Of a stretch of 64,000 nt of DNA, positions 51,040 to 52,745 are shown in pieces. Origin of the DNA: Escherichia coli. GTDB taxonomy: Bacteria > Pseudomonadota > Gammaproteobacteria > Enterobacterales > Enterobacteriaceae. Every line of letters starts with the position of its first letter. The first letter of the stretch is position 1. Where the stretch lies: assembly GCF_002854065.1 (NCBI RefSeq), contig NZ_CP024147.1. The stretch is one strand, 5' to 3'. The notes beneath the pieces are model-generated. The model worked only from the letters and a program-made list of their open reading frames with translations, did no database searches and had not been told where the DNA came from. A program made the translations under genes and the position numbers.

Positions 51040-51190
51040 CAGTCTGAAACCCGCCGGAACGGTTTATTACGTACATCAGGTGAAACTGACCGATAAGCCG
51101 CTTTCTTTTGGGTCTAGCGTCGTGGACAGTCATTCATCTTTCCGCCCCTCCAAAAGCAAAAACCCGCCGAAGCGGGTTTTTACGTAAATC
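51040..51190. repeat. Direct repeats of the rnpB 3' end/terminator region (about 1.5 extra units of about 110 bp)
   Basis: catcaggtgaaactgaccgataagccg...cgtggacagtcattcatct occurs at 51074-51138 and again at 51186-51240 (the latter overlapping the rnpB 3' end); aaaaacccgccgaagcgggttttt hairpin at 51157-51180. Confidence 0.8.
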
Positions 51191-51567
51191 AGGTGAAACT
51201 GACCGATAAGCCGGGTTCTGTCGTGGACAGTCATTCATCTAGGCCAGCAATCGCTCACTGGCTCAAGCAGCCTACCCGGGTTCAGTACGGGCCGTACCTT
51301 ATGAACCCCTATTTGGCCTTGCTCCGGGTGGAGTTTACCGTGCCACGGACTGTTACCAGCCGCGCGGTGCGCTCTTACCGCACCCTTTCACCCTTACCTG
51401 ATCCCGCTTGCGCGGGCCATCGGCGGTTTGCTCTCTGTTGCACTGGTCGTGGGTTTCCCCCCCAGGCGTTACCTGGCACCCTGCCCTATGGAGCCCGGAC
51501 TTTCCTCCCCTCCGCCCGTCTCCCCCGAAGAGGACGACGACGAAGCGGCGACTGTCTGGTCAGCTTC
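51191..51567 (-). ncRNA. rnpB: RNase P RNA component (M1 RNA)
   Basis: Reverse complement of 51191-51567 reads GAAGCTGACCAGACAGTCGCCGCTTCGTCGTCGTCCTCTTCGGGGGAGACGGGCGGAGGGGAGGAAAGTCCGGGCTCCATAGGGCAGGGTGCCAGGTAACGCC...CGGTCAGTTTCACCT, recognised as 377-nt M1 RNA. ORFs 51193..51672 and 51428..51721 are artefacts. Confidence 0.95.
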
Positions 51568-51599
51568 GGCGCGCAGTATAGAGGGTTTGCGCGCCCTTG

Positions 51600-52745
51600 T
51601 CACCCCGCGTTGCGCATTCCAATCGCCAGTGTCGCGGCGATATTACGTGAAGCACGGCAGATATTGTCATAAGCCCCGCGAAATGCTTCCTCCAACGTAC
51701 CTATGCTGGACAATACGCTGAAGACCGCATCAATGCCATGCTGATGTACAACGCCAACATCATCGGTCAGGCTACCCGCAATGCCAATCACCGGTTTATG
51801 GTACTTCTTCGCCACGTTTGCGACGCCAATCGGTACCTTGCCGTGAATACTCTGGCTGTCAATACGCCCTTCACCGGTGATCACCAGCGTACAATCGTGA
51901 ATATGTTCCTCCAGATTCAGTGCCGTAGTGACGATTTCAATACCACTTTTCAGTTCCGCACCAAGAAACGCCATTAGCGCCGCGCCCATACCACCCGCAG
52001 CTCCTGCGCCGGGGACATCTTTCACATCAACATGCAGCGCTTTTTTAATGACCTCGGCATAGTGAGAGAGGTTATTGTCCAGCTCAACAATCATCGCTTC
52101 ACTGGCTCCCTTTTGTGGGCCAAAGATGCGCGATGCGCCGTTATCGCCCACCAGCGGATTGGTGACATCACAAGCGACGCGAATGACGCAATCTTTTAAG
52201 CGCGGATCGAGGCCGGAAATATCAATATCATTCAGAGTATTAAGACTACCGCCGCCAAAACCAATTTCATTGCCGTTGGCGTCGCATAATTTCGCCCCCA
52301 GCGCCTGTACCATGCCTGCGCCGCCATCATTTGTAGCGCTGCCGCCAATGCCGATAATAATGTTTGTCGCGCCGCTCTCTAGCGCCTGCAGGATTAACTC
52401 GCCTGTGCCGCGTGAAGTGGTCACGAGTGGATCGCGTTTTTCCGCAGGTACCAGCTCCAGCCCACTGGCCGCCGCCATTTCAATAAACGCGGTTTTGCCA
52501 TCGCCGGAGATCCCCCAACTGGCATTCACTTTCTCGCCCAGCGGCCCTGTAACCCAGGCGTGACGTTCGGAACCCTGGGTGGCTGCAATCATCGCTTCCA
52601 CCGTTCCTTCGCCACCGTCGGCAACCGGAACAGAAACGTACTGTGCATCAGGAAAAATTTCCCGAAATCCTTTTTCTATCGCCTGCGCAACCTCGCTGGC
52701 AGATAAACTTTCTTTATAAGAGTCTGGGGCGATTACGATTTTCAT
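51600..52745 (-). CDS. garK: Glycerate 2-kinase
   Basis: ORF 51600..52826; ATG 52745 gives MKIVIAPDSYKESLSASEVAQAIEKGF (381 aa). Confidence 0.9.
   Translation of the reverse strand: MKIVIAPDSYKESLSASEVAQAIEKGFREIFPDAQYVSVPVADGGEGTVEAMIAATQGSERHAWVTGPLGEKVNASWGISGDGKTAFIEMAAASGLELVPAEKRDPLVTTSRGTGELILQALESGATNIIIGIGGSATNDGGAGMVQALGAKLCDANGNEIGFGGGSLNTLNDIDISGLDPRLKDCVIRVACDVTNPLVGDNGASRIFGPQKGASEAMIVELDNNLSHYAEVIKKALHVDVKDVPGAGAAGGMGAALMAFLGAELKSGIEIVTTALNLEEHIHDCTLVITGEGRIDSQSIHGKVPIGVANVAKKYHKPVIGIAGSLTDDVGVVHQHGIDAVFSVLSSIGTLEEAFRGAYDNICRASRNIAATLAIGMRNAG

Follow-up and report, generated by a model that had tools for sequence, protein, structure and literature searches.

The window analysed here is a stretch of 64,000 nucleotides of Escherichia coli DNA (assembly GCF_002854065.1, contig NZ_CP024147.1), and the element in question is the set of repeats that follows rnpB, the gene for M1 RNA, the RNA of RNase P and in E. 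coli a textbook ribozyme. We found the gene on the minus strand, where the original prediction, made from the sequence alone, had put it: an Rfam scan of positions 48000-54000 placed a full-length RNase P RNA there (RF00010, 318.6 bits with the gathering score at 100 bits; E 1.6e-104; all 367 model positions covered), and the RefSeq annotation gave the same coordinates (Table 1). The 1 kb from 50700 to 51700 was 100% identical to E. coli strain CUWW06, in which RefSeq rnpB, garK and a YhaC-family gene occupy the corresponding positions. Judged by its sequence, the locus is an ordinary E. coli rnpB. Downstream of the gene we found an intrinsic terminator (T1), a single decayed copy of the rnpB 3′ end together with its terminator, a probable pair of repetitive extragenic palindromic (REP) sequences and the remnant of a half unit.

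Table 1. Features observed at the rnpB locus of the window (positions are those of the whole stretch; ORF, open reading frame; BIME, bacterial interspersed mosaic element)
Feature	Position	Strand	Basis
yhaC, convergent gene downstream of rnpB	49620-50807	+	ORF, 395 aa; RefSeq 'YhaC family protein'
Half-unit remnant CAGTTTCA..AACCCGCG..GTTTTTGCTTTTGG..AGATGAAT, closes the array	50850-50908	-	direct repeats at spacing 281-282
Probable inverted REP pair (BIME) with A/T-rich centre, inserted in the last unit	50923-51020	.	fold -42.5 kcal/mol, z -3.66
Extra unit ('pseudo-3′-end')	51040-51139	-	profile HMM and alignment to the native unit
Native repeat unit, 101 nt: 3′-terminal 50 nt of rnpB (from AGAUGAAU), GAUUU, T1, spacer	51140-51240	-	direct repeats, unit dissection
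T1, intrinsic terminator: GUAAAAACCCGC-UUCG-GCGGGUUUUUGC, then UUUU	51152-51183	-	fold -24.4 kcal/mol, z -3.24
GAUUU, RNase E-dependent processing site directly 3′ of mature M1 RNA	51186-51190	-	sequence position; literature
rnpB, 377-nt class-A RNase P RNA (M1 RNA)	51191-51567	-	Rfam match and RefSeq annotation of identical strain
159-aa ORF antisense to rnpB, running into garK 3′ antisense	51193-51672	+	ORF list
97-aa ORF antisense to rnpB and the garK 3′ end	51428-51721	+	ORF list
Candidate rnpB sigma-70 promoter: -35 GTGACA 51603-51598, 17-nt spacer, -10 TATACT 51580-51575	51575-51603	-	consensus scan, 10/12 positions
garK (glycerate 2-kinase)	51600-52745	-	Pfam Gly_kinase 524.9 bits; RefSeq CDS in CUWW06

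Comparison of the region with itself gave repeats in a consistent register, confirming that the 3′ segment of rnpB and the sequence of the downstream hairpin are duplicated. A 21-nt sequence recurs exactly (51119-51139 and 51220-51240) and 60 nt recur at 88% identity (51047-51106 and 51160-51219), the spacings of the two pairs being 101 and 113 nt. The last 48 nt of M1 RNA recur once, at 51139-51079, with an insertion of 12 nt, and alignment of the native with the extra unit showed 86 identities over 115 columns. The extra unit carries copies of J18/2 and of the 3′ strands of P2, P4 and P1 of M1 RNA. Its insertion, GCUAUACCCAAAAGAAAGC, is absent from M1 RNA and lies after CCACGAC within a variant segment, GCTAGACCCAAAAGAAAGC (51118-51100). 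In addition, the 3′ strand of P4 is altered from CCC to AGC (pattern ..AAAGAA[AC]GC GGCTTA..) and the copy of the processing site reads GAUGU, compared with GAUUU in the native unit. About 1.5 further copies had been predicted for positions 51040-51190, but this span consists of T1 and the spacer of the native unit plus one extra unit; the half unit lies outside it, beyond the REP pair.

A profile hidden Markov model (HMM) for the core of the unit was derived from 32 species, every Escherichia row being left out. In the 64-kb window it found exactly one copy beyond the native one, at 51138-51080 (65.0 bits, E 3e-19). The same model matched the native rnpB 3′ end in the window with 42.7 bits (E 2.9e-12) and found three extra units in K-12. 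Since the extra unit was matched at E 3e-19 by a model free of Escherichia sequences, a chance resemblance is excluded. Tandem Repeats Finder reported no array at the rnpB locus, because fewer than two copies are present and they differ by a 12-nt indel; seed-and-extend repeats and the profile search were used instead. The REP pair gave Rfam matches to naRNA4 and ES036 below the gathering scores, and a 1-kb query containing it had a median of 35 matching places per E. coli genome, as REP sequence would give. Elsewhere in the window, positions 13145-13529 hold a 100-bp REP/BIME unit repeated 3.8 times in tandem (94% matches), from which three naRNA4 (RF02564) matches above the gathering score arise (13196-13477, minus strand); these three and rnpB are the only strong RNA-family matches that Rfam gave in the whole window.

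T1 was the only element of the rnpB locus that combines a GC-rich hairpin with a directly following U tract; the hairpin alone has a folding energy of -18 kcal/mol. The copy of the terminator in the extra unit (51065-51047, AAACCGUUCCGGCGGGUUUCAG) forms no stable hairpin (z +0.26 versus shuffled sequences) and has no U tract, and the half-unit remnant likewise has no hairpin (z +0.43 versus shuffled sequences). The prediction of multiple successive terminator hairpins therefore failed for the window, in which T1 is the only credible terminator behind rnpB; several intact terminators in a row are found in K-12 and other strains. In neither the window nor K-12 did a simple consensus terminator scan recover T1, since its stem continues into the U tract; this is a limit of the rule and not evidence against T1. 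Following the established pathway of M1 RNA 3′ processing, the RNA would be transcribed from the sigma-70 promoter with its -35 hexamer on the garK stop codon, its primary transcript would end at T1, and an RNase E-dependent cut at GAUUU would be followed by trimming to the mature 3′ end at 51191. As the terminator of the extra unit is unfolded and its processing site mutated, T1 probably does this job alone in the window strain. The A tract before its stem and the U tract after it make a symmetry because of which T1 may also stop convergent transcription of yhaC. An rne-dependent GAUUU site beside the terminator is described in PMC3937726, citing Kim et al. 1996, and 'rnpB T1' is in use as a genetic terminator part (PMC3643576). 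We also noted a second T1 allele, whose loop is longer (AAAACCCGCCAGCGTAAACCGGCGGGTTTTT and related sequences), in E. coli IAI1 and other Escherichia species (loci L008 = IAI1, L012, L045, L058 and L087), and across genera two terminator types, one with a short UUCG tetraloop and one of a long ACGCCCGCAGGTGAAAGCCTGYGGGCG form, each occurring in native or extra units.

Comparison of strains, which the original prediction had proposed as a check, showed that the copy number varies in whole units, from zero to four extra units in the dissected alleles. CFT073 and O157:H7 have no extra unit, T1 running straight into GGTGC.CAGGGTA-AGATGAAT. One extra unit is present in XH992, with an intact terminator and without the REP pair, and in the window strain and IAI1, where the decayed unit is accompanied by the REP pair and the remnant; E1535 has two, K-12 and 120899 have three and C10 has four. 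The K-12 array thus consists of the native unit, three extra units and the half-unit remnant, and an array end with this remnant was also found in E1535, IAI1 and C10. The distance from the native to the first extra unit is 101 nt and that between units 113 nt, while the last unit, the REP pair and the remnant together take 282 nt. Region lengths of 474, 591, 704 and 817 nt among the alleles correspond to steps of 113 bp plus one 4-nt indel, pointing to unequal recombination or slippage between units. The insertion-bearing form of the extra unit was found in nine E. coli alleles. A survey of 5,426 complete E. coli genomes was made with a 63-nt probe placed across the insertion, which rules out a match to the native gene. 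It matched 3,673 genomes, with 1-8 copies (median 2), all chromosomal; by this probe, extra units are absent from 1,753 of the 5,426 genomes (32%). Among 60 evenly spaced carriers, 22 had one copy, 10 had two, 25 had three and 3 had four. Truncated relics of extra units were seen in E. albertii and in E. coli E69.

We take the array in the window to be the classic rnpB 3′ repeat array of K-12 known from Reed & Altman 1983 (PNAS 80:5359), where the K-12 flank was reportedly described as a 113-bp sequence present about 3.5 times, with terminators and small arginine-rich ORFs. The anatomy that we found in K-12 fits this description, and the feature of the window is essentially already known. The two arrays share the locus, units that start inside rnpB at AGATGAAT and contain the M1 3′ segment and the terminator, and an end formed by the REP pair and the half unit. 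Unlike K-12, the window strain has one extra unit, of the decayed edge type, and a single working terminator instead of three.

To place the array in a wider context, species-representative genomes were scanned with the pattern TGTCCACGAC-N7-19-GGCTTATCGGTCAG, which gave at least 120 loci, and then re-scanned with a tolerant version. At least one extra unit lies directly downstream of rnpB in 34 of 92 evaluable Enterobacterales species among the matches listed, to which the species counts below also refer. The carriers belong to the Enterobacteriaceae (Escherichia, Citrobacter, Cedecea, Kosakonia, Lelliottia, Buttiauxella, Atlantibacter, Superficieibacter, Pluralibacter, Phytobacter and Raoultella) and the Erwiniaceae (Erwinia, Izhakiella, Winslowiella and Pantoea allii); the family placement was spot-checked for Izhakiella and Cedecea, and the other genera are presumed to belong where they are listed. 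Neither of two Salmonella loci had an extra unit. In the 38 species dissected, the extra units are nearly all of the long form, with a segment of 19-20 nt (consensus GCT.T.c....AAAGAA.GC), and their cross-genus consensus reads GAATGACTGTCCAC...AAAGAA.GCGGCTTA.CGG.CAG.TTC. Because the insertion is common to these genera, the split between native and extra units must be old. Only Atlantibacter sp. RC6 (L102) has an extra unit of the native type, AGAACCC, without the 12-nt insertion, an arrangement suggestive either of the rnpB 3′ end having been duplicated recently and independently or of conversion of an extra unit by the native copy. The terminator of an extra unit usually matches the native terminator of its own species, a pattern of concerted evolution. 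A terminator-like hairpin with a U tail was present in all 38 native units and in 37 of 38 internal extra units, and in 24 of 38 units that stand last in the array. The lone extra unit of the window belongs to this last type. In the incomplete literature available we found no description of this cross-family distribution, and nothing usable on the repeat in multilocus variable-number tandem repeat analysis (MLVA) or on yhaC with rnpB.

Among the scanned loci, two contigs are probably mislabelled or contaminated (L088 and L075): one labelled Chryseobacterium sp. 18061, in which a typical enterobacterial rnpB is followed by five extra units, and one of 264 bp from an Alkalicoccobacillus assembly, which carries enteric rnpB sequence. 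Assemblies of Citrobacter youngae and Enterobacter sp. CC120223-11 break inside the repeat array (L033/L034 and L121/L122).

Taken together, the locus is that of E. coli rnpB with a contracted 3′ repeat array, and on the explanation that we consider likely its one decayed extra unit is a non-functional relic. Such arrays would have arisen by tandem duplication of the block formed by the M1 3′ end and T1. Their size changes by unequal recombination or slippage between units, as the 113-bp length steps show, while the similarity of the M1-like parts is probably maintained through gene conversion by the native unit. For intact internal units the most plausible role would be fail-safe termination in both directions, behind a stable-RNA promoter that is very strong and has convergent genes opposite it. 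The edge unit of an array is the one that decays, and the window strain has retained this decayed edge unit only. A promoter scan found no sigma-70-like site inside the K-12 extra units, so we rejected the presence of a promoter of their own; the units would be transcribed by read-through only, since they lack one.

Three observations weigh against a plain relic. Insertion-form units with the altered P4 strand persist in the 34 of 92 sampled species, in two families. The insertion, for which the native gene offers no template for gene conversion, is better kept than the terminator or the spacer: the mean pairwise identity in 18 species was 0.93 in the left core and 0.86 in the right core, compared with 0.78 in the insertion, 0.68 in the linker with the terminator and 0.58 in the spacer. 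On these identities, the conservation of the insertion suggests more than a purely neutral relic would be expected to show. Finally, a role in termination only leaves unexplained why the M1-like part is the best-conserved part of the unit.

These observations could instead mean that the extra units are a selected functional RNA module, of which the window has a weakened or dead copy, a reading that we regard as rather improbable. Read-through transcripts would be processed to RNAs of about 110 nt with regions like J18/2 and J2/4, the conserved A/G-rich motif AAAGAA.GC, and the terminator with its U tail, and such an RNA could be a molecule of the small RNA (sRNA) kind or a decoy for a partner that binds M1 RNA. 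In its favour are the presence of the units in 34 of 92 species across Enterobacteriaceae and Erwiniaceae, their cross-genus consensus, an insertion segment better conserved than the spacer and the restriction of native-type extra units to Atlantibacter RC6 among the species sampled. A comparable case is the rtT RNA, which is processed out of the tyrT transcript (PMC4986893). However, nearly a third of the E. coli genomes (32%) and both Salmonella loci are without units, and the units have no promoter of their own. RNAalifold gave only a weak helix for the unit core (-4.6) with no compensatory change, hence no convincing conserved structure beyond the terminator, and no Rfam family matched the extra units. 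Moreover, the conservation could stem from gene conversion and shared ancestry, and the species sample is phylogenetically redundant. In a broader form, the units would be an ancient selected module common to Enterobacteriaceae and Erwiniaceae, in which the J2/4 insertion and the P4-disabling change are maintained, either as a functional read-through RNA or as a design that blocks a second catalytic fold and provides two-way termination; this we hold to be unlikely.

We also considered whether each unit encodes a small basic peptide, an idea that is reportedly attached to the original description of the repeats. The K-12 candidates are two 38-aa ORFs, MNDCPRR... and MTVHD..KRKRLIGQ.., each of which ends in an ATGA overlap with the start in the next unit. 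Both frames are open across each 113-nt unit of K-12, with GGAGGGG upstream of the ATGs, and the 42-aa ORF of the extra unit in the window (51005-51133, minus strand) appears under the name 'hypothetical protein' in many GenBank records from E. coli and Shigella, in a cluster of 14. In the window, however, a T-to-G change with respect to K-12 creates a TAG that closes the first frame after seven codons (GCTAGACCC). Of 73 extra units from 38 species, only 30 in one frame and 28 in the other contain an ORF of 25 aa or more that begins with ATG, and starts and lengths vary. The units differ in length (105-126 nt), the insertion measures 19 or 20 nt, a difference that changes the reading frame, several species have lost the ATGs, and no Pfam match was obtained. 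A small protein-coding gene was rejected, since no frame is conserved over the 73 units, and the peptide is accordingly very improbable. The 159-aa and 97-aa ORFs antisense to rnpB are spurious, in line with the warning that they should not be taken as proteins: neither has a Pfam domain or a RefSeq annotation. Public databases nevertheless list the identical 159-aa sequence under BAG78931.1 (E. coli SE11, 'conserved hypothetical protein'), whose cluster has 284 members. This entry and those for the 42-aa repeat ORF should be treated as spurious.

Another conceivable origin of the pseudo-3′ ends is site-specific integration into the rnpB 3′ end, of which they would be scars, as left by genomic islands at tRNA and transfer-messenger RNA (tmRNA) genes. 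Such events would agree with a region downstream of rnpB that is highly variable between genera and from which yhaB and yhaC are missing in CFT073, with a long inverted-repeat element that, in about 10 species, directly adjoins the P1 3′ strand in either native or extra units, and with the island-type sRNA isrN, located 2.4 kb downstream in one Citrobacter. Nevertheless, the units are strictly head-to-tail without an intervening island, no integrase was found within 5 kb downstream in the two loci examined, and the 113-bp unit steps fit unequal recombination, which makes this origin highly unlikely. The inverted-repeat element deserves mention in its own right. In those species, a long imperfect inverted repeat, AACAATACGTTGGTGTRTC...GATACACCAACGGTTGTT, with variable inner content and without a U tract, takes the place of the usual terminator behind the P1 3′ strand (loci L016, L024, L032, L042, L047, L056, L077 and L109, also L011 and L068); L109 has one compensatory change from G-C to A-T. 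No Rfam family matched the element and no integrase lay within 5 kb in the two loci examined; the element may represent either a small mobile element or another kind of rnpB 3′ module.

On the 5′ side of rnpB, the garK stop codon TGA (51602-51600) lies just upstream, as predicted, with a measured gap of 32 nt to position +1 of rnpB. K-12 MG1655 and CUWW06 have the same gap and the same gene order, with garK upstream and yhaC downstream. The longest ORF of garK extends to 52826. Our consensus scan gave a single sigma-70-like site upstream of rnpB, GTGACA and TATACT separated by 17 nt, and K-12 has an identical site. Since the -35 hexamer covers the stop codon, the promoter does reach into garK as had been proposed, while the -10 hexamer is intergenic; the GC-rich sequence GCGCGCC (51574-51568) separates it from +1. 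Motamedi et al. 1984 is cited for additional promoters upstream of rnpB. On the 3′ side, a Pfam domain search with the yhaC product gave no match. In CFT073, where yhaC and yhaB are missing downstream of rnpB, tdcR is close by. The rnpB 3′ flank varies within E. coli as well as from genus to genus.

Two other E. coli systems resemble the rnpB repeats. Behind tyrT, as behind rnpB, a stable-RNA gene is followed by tandem units, there of 178 bp, that start with a copy of its own 3′ end, and small basic ORFs were once proposed in them. The processed rtT RNA of the tyrT repeats is documented according to PMC4986893, which refers to Bösl & Kersten 1991, whereas the rnpB units have no known product, and the sequences of the two are unrelated. 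With respect to termination, an example of likeness is T1 and T2 of rrnB. These are tandem intrinsic terminators behind a strong stable-RNA promoter, so that in both systems successive terminators made of a GC hairpin and a U tract follow a stringently controlled stable-RNA gene, and nearly all internal rnpB units (37 of 38) are intact. The rnpB terminators differ in being embedded in copies of the gene 3′ end, and the second one is decayed in the window.

What the present analysis adds is that the same extra units, with the same insertion, occur across two families of Enterobacterales, which leaves room for a selected role. For E. coli itself, the array is a natural copy-number marker, with 0-8 units, and a spot where short-read assemblies break. 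For the order as a whole, the wide spread of the units raises the question of how the 3′ end of a strongly expressed ribozyme gene is insulated, and of a possible RNA from the units.

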